In this document: positions 6,925 to 61,580 of the stretch, piece by piece | Position numbering within the stretch: position 1 is the first letter of the stretch | Layout of the letters: the number at the start of each line of letters is the position of its first letter | Made by a program: the position numbers and the translations under genes | Origin: a virus | Taxonomy: Duplodnaviria > Caudoviricetes | Strand: one strand, 5' to 3' | Virus record (IMG/VR): IMGVR_UViG_3300013121_000029 | Coordinates: 96,001-160,000 of that record | Length of the DNA stretch: 64,000 bases | Notes under the pieces: generated by a model | Database searches by the model: none | Told to the model about the DNA's origin: nothing | The model's input: only the letters and a program-made list of their open reading frames with translations

Positions 6925-6997
6925 TGGCATCCCGAGAGACTTGAACTCCCAACTTCTGGTTTTGAAGACCAGCGTTCTGCCATTGAACTACACCCTT
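6925..6997 (-). tRNA. tRNA-Trp-like opal suppressor (TCA) with unpaired acceptor stem, probable pseudo-tRNA
   Basis: arm CTGGT-CTTCAAA-ACCAG; 5-prime AAGGGTG does not pair with 3-prime GGGATG-CCA. Confidence 0.65.
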
Positions 6998-24722: not shown

Positions 24723-24797
24723 TGGTGCTCGTGGAGGGAATCGAACCCACAACTAACGATTTTAGGGATCGTTTTTCTACCATTGAATTACACAAGC
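24723..24797 (-). tRNA. amber suppressor tRNA (CTA)
   Basis: acceptor GCTTGTG/CACGAGC, arm ACGAT-CCCTAAA-ATCGT (C33), TTCGATT loop, ACCA. Confidence 0.8.
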
Positions 24798-32366: not shown

Positions 32367-32957
32367 TTAAACTGAACCACCATATGCTTTCACAAAATCA
32401 ACAAGACCACGCTTATAACCAGCACCTACTGCCTTGAACATCCAAGAACCATCTTTCAAATACACACTACCGAACTGAACAGCAGTTTCGACAGAGAAGT
32501 CATCTTCGAGACTATATTTTGCAATTTCTTCACCAGTTTCATCATTATACAGTTTGATGTAACTATTTGATACTTGACCAAAGTTTTGCTTACGATTAAC
32601 AGCATCGTGGATCGTAACAACAAATGAAATTTCATTTGCGGCTTTATTGAGTTTGGTAAGATCGATAATGATTGACTCATCATCACCAGCAGTATCACCA
32701 GTCAATTCATCCCCAGTGTGAGTAACGGCACCATCGGGAGTTACTTTATTGTTATAAAACACAAAGTAACTATTGTCAATTAATTTTGGATTTCCACCAT
32801 TGTCATTACATACAAAGCATGACACATCAAGATCATATGCACTACCTGTATTGAATTTGTTTGCATCCCAACCCAGTCCTGCACGAATTCGTTTGAGGGA
32901 AGCAGAAGATTCTTTGGACAGGTTCACTCTGCTACCTTTTTCAAGATTAATAGTCAT
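32367..32957 (-). CDS. terD: TerD-family stress protein
   Basis: INLEKG, GLGWD, DLDVS, VFYNN, HTGDELTG..GDDE, QNFGQV, W.FKAVGAG. Confidence 0.95.
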   Translation of the reverse strand: MTINLEKGSRVNLSKESSASLKRIRAGLGWDANKFNTGSAYDLDVSCFVCNDNGGNPKLIDNSYFVFYNNKVTPDGAVTHTGDELTGDTAGDDESIIIDLTKLNKAANEISFVVTIHDAVNRKQNFGQVSNSYIKLYNDETGEEIAKYSLEDDFSVETAVQFGSVYLKDGSWMFKAVGAGYKRGLVDFVKAYGGSV

Positions 32958-32985
32958 TTTAATATCCTCTTATGATGTTTAAATA

Positions 32986-33810
32986 TTATACATTACGACG
33001 TACGTGTTCGTCAACGATGATGTTAAAGTTACTTTGGAATTTAGGAATCTTAAAATATCCTTCTGCCATGCAACCACTAACTAAATCATCAACAAATGAT
33101 TTTGGAAAATCCCTAATAGTAGCCTTAATCACAGCTGATGGTTGTGACAAGATATACTTAATAGGACGAACAATAACCTTACACTCTTCAGTATTGACGA
33201 GTTCAATATAATCTTCAAATTTTGGAATAGCAGCAAAGTTAATGGCTGCTTCTACTGCAGGATCGTTCCCATAATATCTTGCAAAATACAAGAAAATGCT
33301 TTCATTGGTAATTCCATCTTTGTCCATAATTTCGATCAATTTTTGCTCATGAGTACCAGTAATATGGACATCATCAATAAAGATAAGTAATTTACCCTTA
33401 ATAAATTCACGGTTAAAAAAGAATTGATCATTATCAATTAATTGTTTACGTTTCTCTTTCGAGAGAAATCCATAATCGTTGGTATAACTAACCTTACGAT
33501 GAATCAGTGTATATTCAACTGGTTCTCCTCTGGCCATTACCAACAAATAATTCAACCTATCGATAAAATGTTTCGTTAGCATTGTAGCAGCATTTGGAAC
33601 ATAATTATATGGTGACGGAATAATTACACAACGATTAGAAATCAATTTGGCAGCATGTACTTGAAAAAAATCATTTGCTAGAGCAATACCCATTGATTTT
33701 GCAGCTTGTACTGACCCAAACTTCAAACGAGAATATTGGGTCGGAGCAAAAGGAGCATCGTTCAAATTATCAAAACGATGAACATAGTGACGAGTATGAT
33801 TACTTTTCAT
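32986..33810 (-). CDS. phosphoribosyltransferase-like protein (Ter-associated)
   Basis: YSRLKFG, LIFIDDVHITGTHE. Confidence 0.75.
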   Translation of the reverse strand: MKSNHTRHYVHRFDNLNDAPFAPTQYSRLKFGSVQAAKSMGIALANDFFQVHAAKLISNRCVIIPSPYNYVPNAATMLTKHFIDRLNYLLVMARGEPVEYTLIHRKVSYTNDYGFLSKEKRKQLIDNDQFFFNREFIKGKLLIFIDDVHITGTHEQKLIEIMDKDGITNESIFLYFARYYGNDPAVEAAINFAAIPKFEDYIELVNTEECKVIVRPIKYILSQPSAVIKATIRDFPKSFVDDLVSGCMAEGYFKIPKFQSNFNIIVDEHVRRNV

Positions 33811-34519
33811 TTTCCTCTCTCATAAAATTGATAACGTCATTATACAGCGATTTTGGGGATGCACTCAACATCGTTCTCATACCAACAGTACTAGCACCTA
33901 CTATGTCACAAATAGGATGATCGCCAACATGTAGAATTTCGTTGTATTTGATATTCGGATTACATTCTTTAGTAGCCCAATAATGAACTTGTTCGAAAAA
34001 TTGTCTATCAGGTTTTGAATATCCAATAAGACCAGAAAACAAAGCATATTCAAAAATGTAATCTGTTTGTTCTTGAATATATGGATGTAATATTTTGCCT
34101 GAAATAAAATTCGTATTGCTACCAATACTTACCGTATAACCATTTGTTCGCAACACTTTAAGTAGTTGTTTTGTACTGTCAAGAATAGTAGGAGGATACT
34201 GAAGGAACGATTTTTCAACTTCGTTCTTTAATTCTTCAGCGTCATCGTATACGAAATAATATCCATCTCGGAATTCTTTAAGAAGATCTAACCAATTATA
34301 TACTGTTGCTTTGGGTTTGATACCTTGGATAGCATCTTCATCTAATTTCTTTTTAAGTCTAGTATACCGAGATTCAACATCACCAATCGTAAACGCGTTT
34401 ACTGATTCATCTTCGTTAACAAATTCACTAATAATATCAGTGCGATCAGTTGCAAACGAGGGGTTGGGAATTAGTAACGTATTCCATACGTCGAACGAAA
34501 TGTGTTTAATTCTTGACAT
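33800..34519 (-). CDS. HAD-family hydrolase
   Basis: SFDVWNTL, GSNT, SKP, HVGD..CD..GA. Confidence 0.9.
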   Translation of the reverse strand: MSRIKHISFDVWNTLLIPNPSFATDRTDIISEFVNEDESVNAFTIGDVESRYTRLKKKLDEDAIQGIKPKATVYNWLDLLKEFRDGYYFVYDDAEELKNEVEKSFLQYPPTILDSTKQLLKVLRTNGYTVSIGSNTNFISGKILHPYIQEQTDYIFEYALFSGLIGYSKPDRQFFEQVHYWATKECNPNIKYNEILHVGDHPICDIVGASTVGMRTMLSASPKSLYNDVINFMREENEK

Positions 34520-55645: not shown

Positions 55646-56024
55646 ATAAAAACTTTTCTGTTAAGTAATAATGAATATCTGGTGATCTCATCAAAGATAT
55701 AGAAGCATTATTAATTTCTATTTTGTAATAGAGATCACTTAACATTAAATACTTAACATGACCTTGATTACAATAACTTTGTATAACATCATTATGTTCA
55801 TACCAAAAATCATTAATGATATGTTGTAATGCACCATTAATTTGTGCTATAATTAAAGGTTCATTTGAATGAGTTAACCATATTCCTTCACTCATTTTAT
55901 TACTTAACCAATACATAATTTGTTGATCAAGTTTTTTAATATAGCCAGCAATTGCTTTGTTTGCACGTGGACGAAGTTGTTCACAAATATAACGATCTCG
56001 TTCTGCTACTGACATATTTTTCAT
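55644..56024 (-). CDS. hypothetical protein
   Basis: 126-aa ORF. Confidence 0.6.
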   Translation of the reverse strand: MKNMSVAERDRYICEQLRPRANKAIAGYIKKLDQQIMYWLSNKMSEGIWLTHSNEPLIIAQINGALQHIINDFWYEHNDVIQSYCNQGHVKYLMLSDLYYKIEINNASISLMRSPDIHYYLTEKFL

Positions 56025-56028
56025 ATAA

Positions 56029-56430
56029 GTCGTGGGGCCTCGTTACTAAATCTACTTGAGATAACACAATCGGTCAGGCGCTCTTAACATAGGTTAAGCC
56101 ATTAACCCACAAATTTGTAAAGCGTTAGCAAGGACATCTGGTATTTGACCACCAAGTTCTTTGGAACACAGGACTTAACTCGAGTATATCCTGCTGTAGC
56201 TCACCTTGTGGAACCTGAACCATTAACGCTTAAAACAATCTGGTAGAATCTTCGATTCTCTTACCTACACTTGGGTAGACCAGGAAAAGTGAACGGCGTA
56301 CGCAAACATTCGGTACCAAATGTTCGAGAGTATTTCTACTCACCACGTTCAACAGGCTTAATAGGCTGTTACCTGTTTGCTACATTCTTCTCACATCTAA
56401 CAGCATCTGTGGAAGTATCGTCTTCAATTT
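56029..56430 (-). ncRNA. unassigned structured non-coding RNA region
   Basis: no credible ORF, raised GC, nested stems. Confidence 0.5.
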
Positions 56431-56433
56431 TTC

Positions 56434-56509
56434 TGGTTGCCATAGCAAGGATCGAACTTGCGACCAAACGAATATGAATCGTTCGCTCTACCAACTGAGC
56501 TATATGGCA
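56434..56509 (-). tRNA. tRNA-Met/Ile2(CAT)
   Basis: arm AACGA-TTCATAT-TCGTT, CCA. Confidence 0.85.
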
Positions 56510-56673
56510 TTATCAACTATCACTAGCCTTCTAGTTATGGCCTATCTACATTGCCGTGTTTCGGTTTGTGACCGTCACGTAATTGCGGTTAGGGCAGCTT
56601 ATTCCCCTTCCTACGATACCAATTAGCGAAATTCTCAAATGCATAATTGGAGTGATACAACTCTTTAAAAAAC

Positions 56674-56747
56674 TGGTAGTCCTGACACGATTTGAACGTG
56701 TGTATCAACTTTATCAGAGTTGTATTCTACCATTGAATTACAGGACT
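56674..56747 (-). tRNA. tRNA-Ile(GAT)
   Basis: arm CAACT-CTGATAA-AGTTG, CCA. Confidence 0.85.
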
Positions 56748-56752
56748 ATATT

Positions 56753-57286
56753 TTATTTATTCAAATATGGATAAGCAATATCCATTATTTCTTGTTTTGT
56801 GTAATTTCTCGATACTGCGTTAGTGCAAACTATAGTCCACAACGATCCGTTTGGACCTGGTAAATTGTCGATATACCCACCTAAATATTTCATATATCTT
56901 CTCATTATGAAATTATAGATACGCATTCTTTTATCTGTGTGATCTATCGCTCCAAATACTAATCCATCAAATCTAAAATTAGGTATTTCATTTTTAATAG
57001 CATTAAAAATAGCACCAATAATTGCTGCAGATTGTTTATTATTTAATGTAGCCTTATGTGACCATTCTTTTAATTCTTGATTCCATATTTGGAAACTAAT
57101 ATGAAAGACCTCTAATTCTTTTATTGGTAATAGATCCAATCGAATTTGATATTCATGTTCACCAGAAGTAAACCGACCAATCTTATTACCATCATTGTCT
57201 ATTGTCCACTTAGTATTAATTTCTGTATTCAATACTTCAGTTAAATTAATTTTAAATTGTTCTTCGACTATTTCTTCCAATTTCAT
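56753..57286 (-). CDS. family B paralog (MKLEEIVEE leader)
   Basis: FDGLVFGA..KRMRIYN; TATAAATA at 57319-57326. Confidence 0.7.
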   Translation of the reverse strand: MKLEEIVEEQFKINLTEVLNTEINTKWTIDNDGNKIGRFTSGEHEYQIRLDLLPIKELEVFHISFQIWNQELKEWSHKATLNNKQSAAIIGAIFNAIKNEIPNFRFDGLVFGAIDHTDKRMRIYNFIMRRYMKYLGGYIDNLPGPNGSLWTIVCTNAVSRNYTKQEIMDIAYPYLNK

Positions 57287-57346
57287 TTACTATCTCAAGT
57301 TTTTTCATAATTATACTTTATTTATAAAATGAAAACAACTTCTATT

Positions 57347-57421
57347 TGGAGCCCCCAGCCAGAATTGAACTGACAAGTACGGATTACAAAACCGTCATTT
57401 TACCATTAGAATTATGGGGGC
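57347..57421 (-). tRNA. tRNA-Thr(TGT)
   Basis: acceptor GCCCCCA/TGGGGGC, loop TTTGTAA. Confidence 0.85.
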
Positions 57422-57426
57422 AAATG

Positions 57427-57501
57427 TGGAGCGTCCACAGAGAGTCAAACTCTGTACACATGAGTGGAAGTCATGTATGTAATCACCAACACCTTGGACG
57501 C
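57427..57501 (-). tRNA. tRNA-Gly(TCC)
   Basis: arm CATGA-CTTCCAC-TCATG, U73. Confidence 0.85.
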
Positions 57502-57748
57502 ATTAATCTCTCGGGAGGCTGCATCCTCCCTTCACTCAACAACAATTTGCAGCGTTATTGAGTAGTATTCTTTCTACTTTTAATTCCATCAATTACACGT
57601 CTGATCATATCAACTCCATTAGCCATGCAACCATCATCGTCATCTGGAATAAAAATATAATCCTCACTAGCAAATACCCATCCGTCCTCTAACAATAATT
57701 GTTTATCTTCCTGTGATATTTGCTTACTCATCTTTATTTCCTTATAAT

Positions 57749-57824
57749 TGGCACCGGCGATGGGAATCTAACCCACCTCGAACTAGTAGACAGCTAGTTG
57801 CCCTCAACAGAGTGCTACGCCGGT
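57749..57824 (-). tRNA. tRNA-Asp(GTC), atypical D and T loops
   Basis: arm ACTAG-CTGTCTA-CTAGT, G73. Confidence 0.75.
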
Positions 57825-57833
57825 ATAAAAACT

Positions 57834-57907
57834 TGGTAGGACTGCATGGTACCACCCCATGTTCTCAAAGTTAAAAGCTTTGTGCATCATTTTAATGCTT
57901 CAATCCC
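57834..57907 (-). tRNA. tRNA-Lys(TTT), non-canonical T loop
   Basis: arm CAAAG-CTTTTAA-CTTTG; T loop GGTGGTA. Confidence 0.75.
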
Positions 57908-57913
57908 ACAATT

Positions 57914-57988
57914 TGGTGGAAACAATAGGACTTGAACCTATAACGCGCAGCTCTTCAGGCTACCGCTCTACCATTGAGCTATGTTTCC
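57914..57988 (-). tRNA. tRNA-Phe(GAA)
   Basis: arm GTAGC-CTGAAGA-GCTGC, CCA. Confidence 0.9.
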
Positions 57989-58523
57989 GTAATTCTATTA
58001 TTTATTTAATAATGGATAAGCAAGTTCCATTATTTCATCTTTTGTAAAGTTTCTTGATACTGCTGGAGTACATACTATAGTCCATAAAGATCCATTTGGA
58101 CCTGGTAAATTTTCAATAGTATTTCCTAAAAATTTTACATATCTATAAGCAATACGATTATATATTCCCATTCGTTGTTTAACGTCCTCAACAGCTCCAA
58201 ACACTAATGCGTCAAAATTGTGTTTATATACTTCGTCTGATATCGCATGAAATATAGCACTTATCACTATTATTGCTTGTTTATTAGACAATGTTGCTGT
58301 AATCGACCAATTATTATTAATTACATCCCATTTATCAAATCCGATCTGAATTACGTTAAAATCTTCTATTGGTAAACGTTGTAAATGAATTCTATATTGA
58401 TCTTCCCCACTTACAAATGTTCCGATTTTGTTACCTTTGGCGTCTGTTGTCCAGGTAGTTGGCAGTTTTGTATTTAATGTTTCGGCCAATTCTCTTAATT
58501 TCATATCTTATTTCCGTAATTCT
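57984..58523. repeat. 13-bp direct repeat TTTCCGTAATTCT flanking CDS 57998-58504
   Basis: copies at 57984-57996 and 58511-58523. Confidence 0.75.
57998..58504 (-). CDS. family B paralog (MKLRELAE leader)
   Basis: very similar to 56753-57286 (NLPGPNGSLWTIVCT, AYP.LNK). Confidence 0.75.
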   Translation of the reverse strand: MKLRELAETLNTKLPTTWTTDAKGNKIGTFVSGEDQYRIHLQRLPIEDFNVIQIGFDKWDVINNNWSITATLSNKQAIIVISAIFHAISDEVYKHNFDALVFGAVEDVKQRMGIYNRIAYRYVKFLGNTIENLPGPNGSLWTIVCTPAVSRNFTKDEIMELAYPLLNK

Positions 58524-58549
58524 TACACACGAGCTCATCCTACTGTGTT

Positions 58550-58582
58550 GTCAGTTGCAATAGACCACTCTGCCATACTTCC
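58550..58582 (-). pseudogene. 5-prime half of a tRNA-Ser-like gene
   Basis: GGAAGTATGGCAGAGTGGTCTATTGCAACTGAC followed by unrelated sequence. Confidence 0.6.
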
Positions 58583-58589
58583 ATATATT

Positions 58590-58680
58590 TGGTGGGACTG
58601 CCTGGATTTGAACCAGGATTTGCCATTTATCTGATGCTACGGAGTATAAACCCGCTACTTTACCGTTAAGTTACAGTCCC
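58590..58680 (-). tRNA. tRNA with TAT (Ile) anticodon and long variable arm
   Basis: acceptor GGGACTG/CAGTCCC, loop TTTATAC, 21-nt variable region. Confidence 0.75.
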
Positions 58681-58825
58681 AAATTCATTTTTCCTTAACC
58701 CTCACCTGTTTCGTCTTGGGTTAGTTGGCCCCGCTAAGAGCCTCATCAACAATCTCCATTAAAGTATTCGGTTACATTCTCAAAAACAGGAAAATCTAAC
58801 CTAGATTGTTTCAAGGAAAAATACT

Positions 58826-59350
58826 TTAATTCTTTAATTCGATGGTCGTCAACCATTCTTTAAAATCATCTGTATTTTTTATATTATCAGAAACAATAAC
58901 AGTTCCGATTTTTCCTAATCCTAAAGGAATGTTCTCAATTATTGTTCCCAAATCTTTCAACTTCCATCTAGCAATAGAATTGTAAATCCTCATTCGCTTG
59001 TCTGTATTATCTGTAGCAACAAATATCAGTGCGTCATAATCAAAATAATCTTTTTTCTCATACAATGCATTTACCACTACACCCATAACAACAGAAGCGG
59101 ATTTGTTATCATAGGTTGGTTTTGTTGACCATTCGTTTTTATTTTTTATTTGAAACGCTACATTAAGGCAATTAAATTTATTTTGATATACAAATGGTTC
59201 AAAAAGCACACGATATTGAGCATTATTTACTTCAAAATCCCCACAATATGCTCCCTGATCATGATACCAGTTTACTTCTCTTGTTGCATTAAACACTTCA
59301 TATAAATCAACTACATATCCATCTGAAGATACTAATTCCTGGAGTTTCAT
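58826..59350 (-). CDS. family B paralog (MKLQELV leader)
   Basis: YDALIFVA..KRMRIYN. Confidence 0.7.
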   Translation of the reverse strand: MKLQELVSSDGYVVDLYEVFNATREVNWYHDQGAYCGDFEVNNAQYRVLFEPFVYQNKFNCLNVAFQIKNKNEWSTKPTYDNKSASVVMGVVVNALYEKKDYFDYDALIFVATDNTDKRMRIYNSIARWKLKDLGTIIENIPLGLGKIGTVIVSDNIKNTDDFKEWLTTIELKN

Positions 59351-59430
59351 TATATATTAACACCATGTCCTTTCAAATATAAACCTTAAAATAGTTAGGA
59401 CTAATTACAATTAGTGGCAAATGTGTCCAG

Positions 59431-59513
59431 CTCTCAGGGTTGGACTCGAACCAACGATGGCTTTCGCACGTGATTAACAGTCACGCCCCTGCTACCAACT
59501 CGGGTACCTGAGA
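59431..59513 (-). tRNA. tRNA-Asn(GTT) with long variable arm, no encoded CCA
   Basis: arm CGTGA-CTGTTAA-TCACG; flanks extend the acceptor stem. Confidence 0.8.
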
Positions 59514-59548
59514 GCTCGACACACTCACCAATTACTCTCTTCGAAACA

Positions 59549-59668
59549 TGGTCGGAAATAAAGGATTTGAACCTTTAACCCTTTGCTCGGTCTATACACT
59601 TTTAATCTACTTAATTGTAGAAATGTACACACCAAAGCAAATACTCTACCCAGTTGAGCTAATTTCCG
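59549..59668 (-). tRNA. tRNA-Pro(TGG) with a 43-nt insert (59589-59631) in the anticodon loop
   Basis: acceptor CGGAAAT/ATTTCCG, TTTGC-TTTGG[insert]GA-GCAAA, CCA. Confidence 0.8.
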
Positions 59669-59894
59669 TTTAAATAATTTGAGATTCGCGTGTTTCTCCA
59701 CCAATCTCCCTAACCATTTATTCAATAATTAGCTACTTTAATTCATTATTGATTGCCTTTCGCAGATCCATTTACCTTAAATATTACTAGCTCCATGCAT
59801 AGGCAATCCGAACAGGCTTCATATTTAAGACCTTCTTTGAAGAAGGCTGATCACATTCGTAAGAAAAATATTATATCTTATTTAGTAGTTGGGA

Positions 59895-61580
59895 TCAACT
59901 TTTTAAATTAGAAATTATTTGTTTTAATAAACCATCCCTTTCAGTCGTTTTAACTTGCTTTCCTTTCAATACGTCTTTAACTAATTGAACATCTTTTTCC
60001 CAATGTTTTTTATCCAACCAAAAATCTTGAATTTTTGGATTAACTAATCTAAAAACATCGCAAATCAAATCAACTAATTCTTGACCATTAAGGTCATGAG
60101 AAAAACTAAATTCATAAGAAGTGCCTTTAAAGCAATTCTTCTTGTGTCCGTCACTAAAAATAAACAATTGAACACCATATTGTTTGTGTTCAAAAACCCA
60201 AACGCCAGGATTACTTTCATACCCTTTCATGGTAACATTTGGTTTTCCGAATTGTGAAACAACATCACCATCCACATAATCAGTCACCAAAAAAGCCTTA
60301 ATAAGATCAGCAATTCTAAAATTATATGGTTTCTGTACTTTATGAGACAAGTTAAGCAGAGTTTCTGTGTCTGCTTGTTCTATATCTTTAATTGTATATT
60401 TTTTAGTTACACGAGTAAACATATATAATCTCAATTATTCGACTATTATACTATGTTTATTCGACTAATTCAACTGAAAAAAGTACTTCTTGAATTTCAA
60501 ACCTTGGTGCAACTTTTTCATAATCACTCACAGTAGTACAAGAATCTGGATAACGTGCTCCAAATCTTGTAAACCATGCTCCTTCATAACCATAACACTC
60601 AGTTGCAATCTTTGCCATATCCTTTGCTTGTTCAATGTGTTCTTCAAATAAAAAGATAGCATCAGTTAAATCATTTGTAGTTACTAACGCACCACCGGGA
60701 GGAGTAGGTCTAGCATAATCACCACGTAACCATTCCGGAGTAATATGTAATCCATCTACTTCATAATAGCAATCACGTTTGGGATTCATGTTTCTAATAA
60801 CATATGCTTTACGACAATTTTTCTTGCTTTCTTTGACTTCAATTATACTAGGCATTGTGTATAGATGAGCAATAGTATTTGCAGCAAGAAAATCTGTATC
60901 TAATTCTCGCATATCGTGAATGTATTCAGATGCTAACAATAATTGTTCCTTATCGAATTCAGTAGGAACCTCAATTTTGTTAATTCTTACATATTGTTGA
61001 TCTTGATCAGAACTCTCTTCTTTATATCTAACCATTTTAGACAAACGTAGCAAATCCTTAATAGACATATCTTCAAAATCTTGGTCGTACAATGGTATAT
61101 CTCCGTATGATGAGCGAAGAACAATTTCTCCTCCGCCAAATGTATAAGAACAAATTATACAAAATACATATTCATTATTTTCTTGATAATGAGCTGTGCC
61201 GTCATCATCTAATTCAAGTCCTAATCGTTTACAAATTCGTTCGAATTTATTTTTCTTCATAATAAGTTAAACCATCTTTTTCTATAGTTATGATATATTA
61301 TCCATCATTTATTAAAAACCCGTTCATAAGAACGAATAGGACTACGATCTTGTTTACAACATTTTACATTAAATTTCCAATCACGATCACGAAGCAATTC
61401 TCGTTGTGTTAGAGCGTTAACAAATAAATTAAGATCACCATCTTCTTCAAGATAAATCGTTTTTCCTTTTTGATAAGAATAAATGCTGATTTGGTTTAGA
61501 ATACCAAGCTCGGCCAGATAGTCACGTTTGACAGCTACCCACCCGTGACCTGCATCGACATAATAATTGTATATCTTCAT
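59895..61580 (-). other. three hypothetical CDS (59895-60434, 60457-61260, 61305-61580)
   Basis: DAGHGWVAV..YLEEDGD motif in the last. Confidence 0.6.

Follow-up and report, generated by a model that had tools for sequence, protein, structure and literature searches.

How could a bacteriophage obtain a working tRNA from a gene whose anticodon loop is interrupted by a hairpin far too small to be a self-splicing intron? The question is raised by a tRNA-Pro(UGG) gene in a window of 64,000 nucleotides, bases 96001–160000 of a 197,594-bp IMG/VR virus record (IMGVR_UViG_3300013121_000029; Caudoviricetes), which has no terminal repeats and is estimated to be 72% complete. Absences reported below for the sequenced genome refer to these 197.6 kb, about 72% of the whole. 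ARAGORN counts 18 tRNAs in the window and 23 in the record, and from this count the window is the tRNA region of a jumbo phage; judged by the phage gene content, the host is bacterial. The gene carries 43 extra nucleotides directly after its anticodon, and we tentatively read them as a protein-dependent hairpin mini-intron that would be cut with the geometry of RNase III and sealed by a phage ligase of the T4 Rnl1 type, a reading that we favour with limited confidence. The parts of the gene are as follows.

59549–59668, minus strand: interrupted tRNA-Pro(UGG) gene, 120 nt including the encoded CCA (59549–59551); Rfam family RF00005
59632–59668, minus strand: 5′ exon, tRNA positions 1–36, ending in the anticodon U34 G35 G36 (from the sequence, the register analysis and ARAGORN on the excised form)
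59589–59631, minus strand: 43-nt hairpin insert (mini-intron) between tRNA positions 36 and 37 (from folds and pair probabilities)
59549–59588, minus strand: 3′ exon, G37 to A73 plus CCA (from the sequence; the excised form is called tRNA-Pro(UGG))

The gene and the hairpin are real. The Rfam tRNA model matches 59552–59668 on the minus strand with 54.6 bits over model positions 1–71, the anticodon loop of the match holding 47 bases where the model expects 4. Read along the minus strand, the layout is CGGAAAU/UA/GCUC..GAGU/A/UUUGC/UUUGG + 43 nt + GA/GCAAA/GGGUU/AAAGG-UUCAAAU-CCUUU/AUUUCCG/A/CCA, in which the acceptor stem (CGGAAAU/AUUUCCG), D arm (GCUC/GAGU), anticodon stem (UUUGC/GCAAA) and T arm (AAAGG/CCUUU, loop UUCAAAU) of a tRNA-Pro can be recognised. 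In silico removal of 59589–59631 leaves a 77-nt sequence that ARAGORN calls tRNA-Pro(UGG), and the claim of the first-pass annotation, made from the sequence, that a canonical 77-nt tRNA-Pro with G37 lies beneath the insert thus stands. The excised form keeps U8, A14, A15-U48, G18, G19, A21, U33, G37, G53, U54, U55, C56, A58 and C61, has the anticodon loop UUUGGGA, and shows C1-G72 with A73, the signature of bacterial tRNA-Pro. The exons are without defect: each of the four stems is paired, no conserved tertiary position is missing and the CCA end is encoded, so that cloverleaf, tertiary positions, C1-G72, A73, G35, G36 and G37 together give a complete tRNA-Pro identity. When the tRNA body was compared with 661 uninterrupted phage tRNAs, leaving the anticodon loop aside, the five best matches were all Pro(UGG).

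The codon use and the tRNA set of the phage give supporting context. CCA and CCU make up 87% of its proline codons, its tRNA set is of the U34 type with one tRNA per codon box, and ARAGORN detects no second tRNA-Pro in the sequenced genome. In bacterial mode the same program overlooks the interrupted gene. Its intron mode offers a Thr(GGU) with a 41-nt intron, which we rejected: this solution places two bases between the D and anticodon stems, and both the acceptor and the body identity disagree with it.

The insert folds into a hairpin that lengthens the anticodon arm. The minimum-free-energy fold of the precursor is a cloverleaf extended in this way (−36.8 kcal/mol, z −4.71); the arm alone reaches −21.5 kcal/mol (z −5.51), with no shuffled sequence folding equally well, and its opposite strand only −10.9 kcal/mol (z −2.56). 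Since the stability is strand-specific by a factor of two and the stem contains G-U pairs on the tRNA strand, the structure acts at the RNA level on that strand and is not a DNA palindrome. All three helices that had been claimed from the sequence (GGU/ACC, the 8–9-bp UGUACAUU(U) stem and UCUAC/GUAGA) appear in this fold, together with the extended anticodon stem that hides the anticodon. From the tRNA body outward, the arm consists of U33-A38, U34-G37, a bulged U, G35-C, G36-C, U-A and a G-G mismatch, followed by eight pairs, a 5-nt bulge, five pairs and a 6-nt loop. The first base of the insert, a U, pairs with its third-from-last base, an A, while its last two bases, CC, pair with anticodon bases G35 and G36; the junction pairs have probabilities of 0.99–1.00 (G36-C80, G37-C79 and U38-A78 in the numbering of the fold). 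G35 and G36 are thereby buried in the precursor fold. A mobile repeat or MITE-like element was considered and rejected: the insert is single-copy, a genome search allowing up to 10 mismatches and a search of the viral collection both failing to yield a second one, and it has no target-site duplication, its flanks being complementary GG/CC and not direct repeats.

This arrangement invites comparison with the protein-spliced introns of archaea and eukaryotes. A bulge-helix-bulge has two 3-nt bulges on opposite strands with a 4-bp helix between them and a splice site in each bulge. Such introns resemble the insert in being short, placed beside the anticodon and, on our reading of the insert, protein-dependent, in having anticodon bases of the 5′ exon paired with the 3′ end of the intron, and in having the 5′ cut further from the tRNA body. 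They differ in position (37|38 against 36|37 here) and in the bulges: the insert has no 3-nt bulges and only 2 bp lie between its junctions. With these two base pairs, a 1-nt bulge and a G-G mismatch in their place, the earlier statement that no bulge-helix-bulge is visible was upheld.

Where the two cuts would fall can be read from the product. We enumerated the eight ways to remove 43 bases and leave a 7-nt loop, each one-base shift of the register within the helix changing the stagger of the two cuts by two; the four of most interest are these.

Register k=5: loop UUUGGGA, anticodon UGG with G37, stagger +2
Register k=4: loop UUUGCGA, an Ala anticodon (UGC), stagger 0 (blunt)
Register k=3: loop UUUCCGA, a Gly anticodon, stagger −2
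Register k=6: loop UUUGGUA, UGG but with U37, stagger +4 (net 4-nt 3′)

Among the eight, only k=5 yields UGG with G37, and only k=5 yields a clean 0/2 (2-nt 3′) overhang, in which C79-C80 protrude beyond a first pair U38-A78 (fold numbering). Because k=5 alone gives UGG and G37, and because the intact tRNA-Pro of a related phage (described below) has the loop UUUGGGA, both junctions are at 36|37.

Bacterial RNase III produces 2-nt 3′ overhangs with 5′-phosphate and 3′-hydroxyl ends, and it accepts a hairpin of 34 nt (PMC1540722). The k=5 junctions have exactly this offset. The E. coli enzyme asks for about one helical turn of duplex on either side of the cut and for no G-C pair next to the scissile bond in the proximal box. 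Around the proposed cuts the duplex offers about 10 stacked levels above (with one G-G mismatch) and 9 below (with one bulged U). On the insert side the cut is flanked by U-A and thus not by the G-C pair with which E. coli catalysis is blocked, but G-C pairs do occupy the two positions between the cuts, so that this helix is no more than a possible substrate.

The genome supplies a candidate sealing enzyme. A full-length homologue of T4 Rnl1 is encoded at genome positions 32902–34056 (minus strand), matching PF09511 with 97 bits and the C-terminal domain PF20819 with 62 bits; its residues 8–372 align to PDB 2C5U (E 2e-60) with the K-A-D-G motif kept. It thus possesses both the adenylyltransferase domain with the motif I lysine and the Rnl1 C-terminal domain that mark the T4 Rnl1 type, and two further ligases of the genome carry PF09414 (Rnl2 family). 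T4 Rnl1 seals anticodon-loop breaks that have 3′-OH and 5′-PO4 ends; in vitro it can splice tRNA halves, and together with Pnkp it can substitute for the yeast tRNA ligase in vivo (PMC1920235). RtcB (PF01139) was not found in the sequenced genome, nor were the splicing endonuclease (PF01974, for which four archaeal control genomes gave matches) and RNase III; with a phage-encoded RNase III absent from the sequenced part, a host enzyme would therefore be needed. The enzymes that the first-pass annotation had pointed to are accordingly present in part: ligases of the Rnl1 and Rnl2 families are there, RtcB and the endonucleases are missing from the sequenced 72%. No Pnkp-type kinase or phosphatase domain was detected in the sequenced part either, an absence that fits ends of the RNase III type because 3′-OH and 5′-phosphate ends need no healing. 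In other phages, Rnl1-type ligase genes lie ~1.6 kb downstream of a radical-SAM gene ~60% identical to the one that neighbours the tRNA-Pro gene (L017:13057–14205 and L018:4194–5342); record L018 also carries a second Rnl1-like gene and three metallophosphatases.

We postulate the following pathway. In the precursor, the hairpin stacked on the anticodon stem would hide G35 and G36. An RNase III-type endonuclease, most likely that of the host, would release the hairpin by cutting one strand behind G36 and the other behind the last C of the insert, a 2-nt 3′ stagger. The two tRNA halves, with 3′-OH and 5′-phosphate ends, would be kept together by the cloverleaf until the T4 Rnl1-type ligase of the phage sealed G36 to G37, without end healing, to give the mature tRNA-Pro, which would then be usable only in cells making the phage ligase. 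Possible benefits to the phage include a timed supply of the tRNA and a shielded anticodon loop until maturation; it may also be that a selfish or decayed insert is simply tolerated.

We then asked whether other phages carry tRNAs of this design. The survey covered 80 viral records encoding Rnl1 homologues and 783 kb of tRNA-dense regions from 29 of them, scanned with intron-aware ARAGORN and a custom frame finder; a register was accepted solely if it agreed with the isotype derived from the tRNA body and gave U33 and a purine at 37. The window's tRNA included, seven hairpin-interrupted tRNAs could be interpreted. Three of them belong to class I and combine an unbroken helix with a clean 0/2 overhang.

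Window, Pro(UGG): 43-nt insert at 36|37, its stem having one mismatch and a 5-nt bulge
L104:17177–17278, Pro(UGG): 27-nt insert at 34|35, loop UUUGGGG
L107:7993–8098, Ala(UGC, G3-U70): 30-nt insert, k=3–5 giving the same product, k=5 being the +2 register

The inserts of L104 and L107 are homologous to each other (0/2000 shuffles), each with 11 uninterrupted base pairs above the cut and a U-A first pair. They share with the window insert the continuous helix on the anticodon stem, the U-A first pair, the last two bases paired to the exon and the 2-nt 3′ overhang, but they are shorter (27 and 30 nt), their helix is uninterrupted, and the window insert has no sequence similarity to them. In each case the end of the insert fits a different exon end: AA for UU in L104, GC for GC in L107 and CC for GG in the window. 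This apparent tailoring to each anticodon is, to judge from the sequences, the best evidence for a functional exon–insert pairing. A pattern scan for further members of the L104/L107 family returned only L104's own record and one intergenic chance match. Taken together, the 2-nt 3′ overhang in the sole correct register, the presence of Rnl1 and the two other phages lend circumstantial support to the earlier suggestion of a protein splicing route, although RtcB, one of the enzymes named for it, is absent.

Several observations weigh against excision by RNase III and Rnl1. First, the helix is imperfect near the proposed cuts: a U is bulged out two pairs below them, a G-G mismatch follows one pair above, and both pairs lying between the cuts are G-C. 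By the rules known for E. coli RNase III, which are those applied here, cleavage can be blocked or biased when irregularities or G-C pairs adjoin the scissile bond (PMC1540722). Second, the +2 register would be reached by luck about 1 in 4 to 1 in 7 times per case, with three supporting cases, and the survey sample consists of Rnl1-encoding phages only, so that a link between such hairpins and Rnl1 is putative. Third, four class II tRNA-Leu genes carry a different conserved 10-bp hairpin flanked by loops, with a stagger of −1/−2, and one of them shares its phage record (L104) with the second Pro case. Fourth, searches by exon, insert and neighbour gene found no orthologue of the interrupted gene. 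Lastly, no RNA sequencing run containing the phage was found among the indexed runs.

The tRNA-Leu genes bear directly on the nuclease. Their inserts are 31–32 nt long with the core AUCUGC...GCGGGU, and they lie as follows.

L104:11282–11399: class II tRNA-Leu
L124:15370–15485: class II tRNA-Leu
L124:18872–18987: class II tRNA-Leu
L141:19382–19495: class II tRNA-Leu

Because their staggers are −1/−2, the +2 rule describes a single architecture and does not extend to every tRNA hairpin of phages; some of the hairpin-insert cases, or all of them, may involve a different nuclease. The insert of the window could thus be a protein-dependent mini-intron cut by another enzyme, an unrecognised phage endonuclease or a host RNase, with one of the three phage ligases rejoining the halves. 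The four Leu hairpins, with a stagger unlike that of RNase III, do hint at a hairpin-recognising enzyme, and many phage genes have no assigned function; against this, no candidate nuclease was identified, homologues of splicing endonuclease, RNase III and RtcB are lacking in the sequenced genome, and the window insert is unlike the Leu family both in sequence and in the structure of its flanks. We consider this version rather improbable.

Interrupted tRNAs are common and diverse in the surveyed genomes, which also gave one group I intron and, in very large phages, a family of inserts of 40–50 nt. Two tRNA-Asn(GUU) genes (L126:9076–9215 and L136:19281–19406) contain ~50-nt inserts with a T-arm-like stem-loop that recall the introns of Lak phages. 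In phage records of 245 kb and ~358 kb, several tRNA-like genes hold extra segments of 30–50 nt with a shared motif, a small hairpin followed by GCAAC (L123:14301–16841; L128:9390–9513; L129:11122–11238; L130:8388–16994), apparently 5′ of the anticodon arm and not in the loop.

Is the insert instead the relic of a ribozyme? The same genome holds a tRNA(CAU) 3.5 kb past the window end (L001:3545–3843, genome 163545–163843, minus strand) with a 220-nt group I intron after U36 (RF00028, 65.1 bits), at the same position, 36|37, as the insert in tRNA-Pro. The intron starts with UGUGCACAUUAC and the insert with UGUGUACAUUUC, 9/10 and 10/12 identical, a 5′ match of a quality reached by 4–5 in 100,000 among all k-mers of the genome. 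Past the first 12 bases the similarity is not significant (p 0.016–0.29 depending on gap costs), local alignment of insert and intron is equalled in 206/1000 shuffles, and the 3′ ends show no match. The 5′ match is, on these sequence statistics, real but unexplained, and the hairpin may descend from a group I intron like that of tRNA(CAU). The earlier idea of a decayed group I remnant has the shared position and the first 10–12 bases in its favour, but not the remainder of the comparison.

The insert as it stands is not a group I intron. In group I introns the base before the 5′ splice site is a U, which takes part in a U-G pair in P1, and the intron ends in G. Those in tRNAs, such as that of Azoarcus tRNA-Ile(CAU) (RF00028), are like the insert in that they interrupt the anticodon loop of a bacterial-type tRNA, but they measure ~200 nt or more with a P3–P9 core. 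At 43 nt, without this core, and with G before its 5′ junction and C at its end (flanks G|...C|), the insert cannot be a group I ribozyme and was rejected as one. An Rfam cmscan of 56000–61000 returned only tRNAs and no intron or ribozyme family at E ≤ 1, while the same search tool did find the tRNA(CAU) intron, in keeping with the first-pass statement that the insert is too short for a group I or II intron. Because the base before a group I 5′ splice site must be U, such an intron could not have used G36; the rule of U before the site and terminal G is obeyed only in the +1 register, which gives U37.

These findings also bear on the possibility that the gene is dead, a recent tRNA-Pro pseudogene holding a decayed group I remnant or a stray hairpin that is never spliced. 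The co-resident intron at the same position with its matching first 10–12 bases would suit such a history, as would the fact that the insert is unique to this phage, the related record and the other loci fetched from relatives being without it. Yet the similarity stops after 12 bases and the 3′ ends differ, an origin at G36|G37 would violate the rule of U before the 5′ site while the register that obeys it gives U37, and the exons carry no defect. A random deletion would not be expected to leave a near-continuous, strand-specific hairpin (z −5.5) that pairs the anticodon in the very register that restores the loop, nor would decay be expected to provide a 3′ half that pairs with both the conserved 5′ half and the anticodon. 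We regard a dead gene as unlikely, while giving it serious weight.

Relatives were sought by sequence pattern and by neighbouring gene. The 3′ exon pattern had no matches in the viral collection or in prokaryote genomes, the 5′ exon pattern none in the viral collection or in metagenomes, and the insert core pattern none in the viral collection; blastn against isolate phages returned only unrelated tRNAs. The neighbouring genes reached relatives at 42–63% identity. Through the radical-SAM neighbour one related phage was found (55% identical, 250 kb), whose tRNA-Pro is uninterrupted, with C1-G72, A73 and the loop UUUGGGA; it has 12 or more tRNAs, none of them interrupted, and no group I intron. 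The ~60% identical radical-SAM relatives lie in loci without tRNAs. For the 267-aa neighbour gene there were no matches in viral contigs, homologues of its two halves being found on contigs without tRNAs, and the 179-aa neighbour gene has only a 42% homologue in an unrelated small phage.

Four sludge DNA runs contain identical short pieces of the phage, none of them extending over 59589–59631. The lack of a contig across the insert in these four runs leaves room for an assembly or sequencing artefact in what is a metagenome-assembled contig, but an artefact would hardly put a structured 43-nt hairpin precisely at the 36|37 junction of a tRNA that is perfect in all other respects, and the same hairpin-insert design recurs in independent assemblies of other phages. 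We consider an artefact very improbable indeed.

Alternatively, the transcript could be functional unspliced, as a tRNA-shaped decoy or regulator with a masked anticodon that would, for example, sequester a tRNA-binding protein or an anticodon nuclease. Its acceptor, D and T arms show no flaw, its anticodon is paired throughout, and the phage has other odd tRNA-like RNAs, its long-armed Ile and Asn tRNAs. Nothing specific speaks for this reading, however, nor for the earlier suggestions of a tRNA mimic and of a shield against anticodon nucleases. For a decoy, the exact canonical 7-nt Pro loop with G37 would be a needless coincidence, and the phage would be left without any tRNA-Pro in the sequenced part of its genome. 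This explanation seems to us improbable.

Excision by RNase III and sealing by Rnl1 would combine features of several known systems. Hairpin intervening sequences of 23S rRNA are removed by RNase III; the pieces are not religated (PMC8708148). Those of Salmonella, Campylobacter and others are like the insert in being extra hairpins in a bacterial stable RNA open to a double-strand-specific nuclease, but they are 100–200 nt long and remain unjoined, whereas a tRNA with a broken anticodon loop cannot decode until its halves are religated. The tRNA restriction-repair system of T4 (cut by PrrC, healed by Pnkp, sealed by Rnl1; PMC1920235) has in common with the proposed pathway a full-length ligase of the same family and a break in the anticodon loop; unlike there, Pnkp was not found in the sequenced part of this phage, and the break would here be a programmed step of maturation. 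A further comparison is offered by Lak megaphages, whose 'enigmatic' tRNA introns were described by Devoto et al. (2019), who stated that phage tRNA introns had not been reported before (PMC6784885). The Lak inserts are 79–114 nt long, lie at 37|38 and have no Rfam match, and several are tRNA-shaped with a T-arm-like motif (Table S6; PMC6784885). Both they and the insert of the window are non-ribozyme phage tRNA inserts beside the anticodon that match no Rfam family and for which no mechanism is known, but the latter is a plain 43-nt hairpin at 36|37 and does not share the features that define the Lak group.

The surroundings of the gene contain further predicted elements.

59870–59898, minus strand: sigma-70-like promoter match (TTGATC-17-TATAAT), predicted by consensus scan only, 10/12 matches
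59415–59530, minus strand: tRNA-Asn(GUU) inside a terminal duplex of ~23 bp (fold −58.1 kcal/mol, z −5.84; tRNA match)

The promoter match, ~200 nt upstream, is a possible start of a transcript that would hold both tRNA-Pro and tRNA-Asn. The tRNA-Asn(GUU) starts 19 nt downstream of tRNA-Pro, and its leader and trailer form the ~23-bp duplex; it has an extra arm of ~10 nt and no encoded CCA. By its modelled fold, this duplex adds another long double-stranded RNA to the array, and it is a predicted target of an RNase III-like enzyme.

The window has a G+C content of 33%, and its small genes, of which nearly all are minus-strand genes, are well read with the standard code. An alternative genetic code was rejected, since the standard one gives the best fit and open reading frames (ORFs) do not merge to any meaningful extent when TAG, TGA or TAA is recoded. 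Despite this fit, a well-formed tRNA with a CUA anticodon (amber suppressor type) is present at window 24723–24797 (minus strand). Other unusual tRNAs are a tRNA-Ile(UAU) at window 58590–58680 (minus), with 18 extra bases in the variable region, odd for a class I isotype; a 100-nt CAU-anticodon tRNA with a long variable arm (class II shape) at L001:1585–1684 (genome 161585–161684, minus); and a partial tRNA match at window 6934–6990 (minus; model positions 8–63, 47.6 bits) without an acceptor stem. The 'tRNA-Leu(CAA)' that ARAGORN reports at window 59970–60058, with its anticodon at position 30, lies within the ORF 59895–60434, has no Rfam match and is probably a false positive. Among the tRNAs lie three paralogous genes of ~170 aa (phrog_6387; window 56753–57286, 57998–58504 and 58826–59350, minus). 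In the 267-aa ORF (window 60457–61260, minus), residues 1–150 are matched by P0244 and residues 148–266 by P0243, which are separate small proteins, and this ORF may be a fusion of two genes. A near-perfect hairpin of 39 nt (19-bp stem, 1-nt loop) at L001:1539–1577 (minus) gave a spurious microRNA match.

To our knowledge, self-splicing group I introns are regarded as the sole basis of tRNA splicing in bacteria and their viruses, and splicing of tRNAs by proteins as an archaeal and eukaryotic trait. A transition from ribozyme to protein-dependent intron has long been proposed for the origin of archaeal introns. We found no description of short hairpin tRNA introns, or of a route by RNase III and ligase, in bacteria or phages in the open-access full-text literature. 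The insert might then represent a third kind of tRNA intron, present in phages and additional to self-splicing group I introns and to bulge-helix-bulge introns that depend on an endonuclease: an anticodon-tailored hairpin excised by RNase III, ligated by an Rnl1-type enzyme and descended from a shrunken ribozyme intron, although in this full form we hold the idea to be doubtful. If the gene is dead instead, it is a snapshot of tRNA gene loss in a jumbo phage, and ordinary. If the tRNA is indeed matured by RNase III and Rnl1, it would define a new and simple tRNA splicing pathway built from housekeeping parts, and standard annotation tools would be missing real phage tRNA genes, as ARAGORN in bacterial mode does here. 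The 5′ bases shared with the group I intron would mark a ribozyme intron that has shrunk to a protein-dependent one, and T4-type RNA ligases would gain a second biological role, Rnl1 being an enzyme of tRNA maturation besides one of counter-defence.

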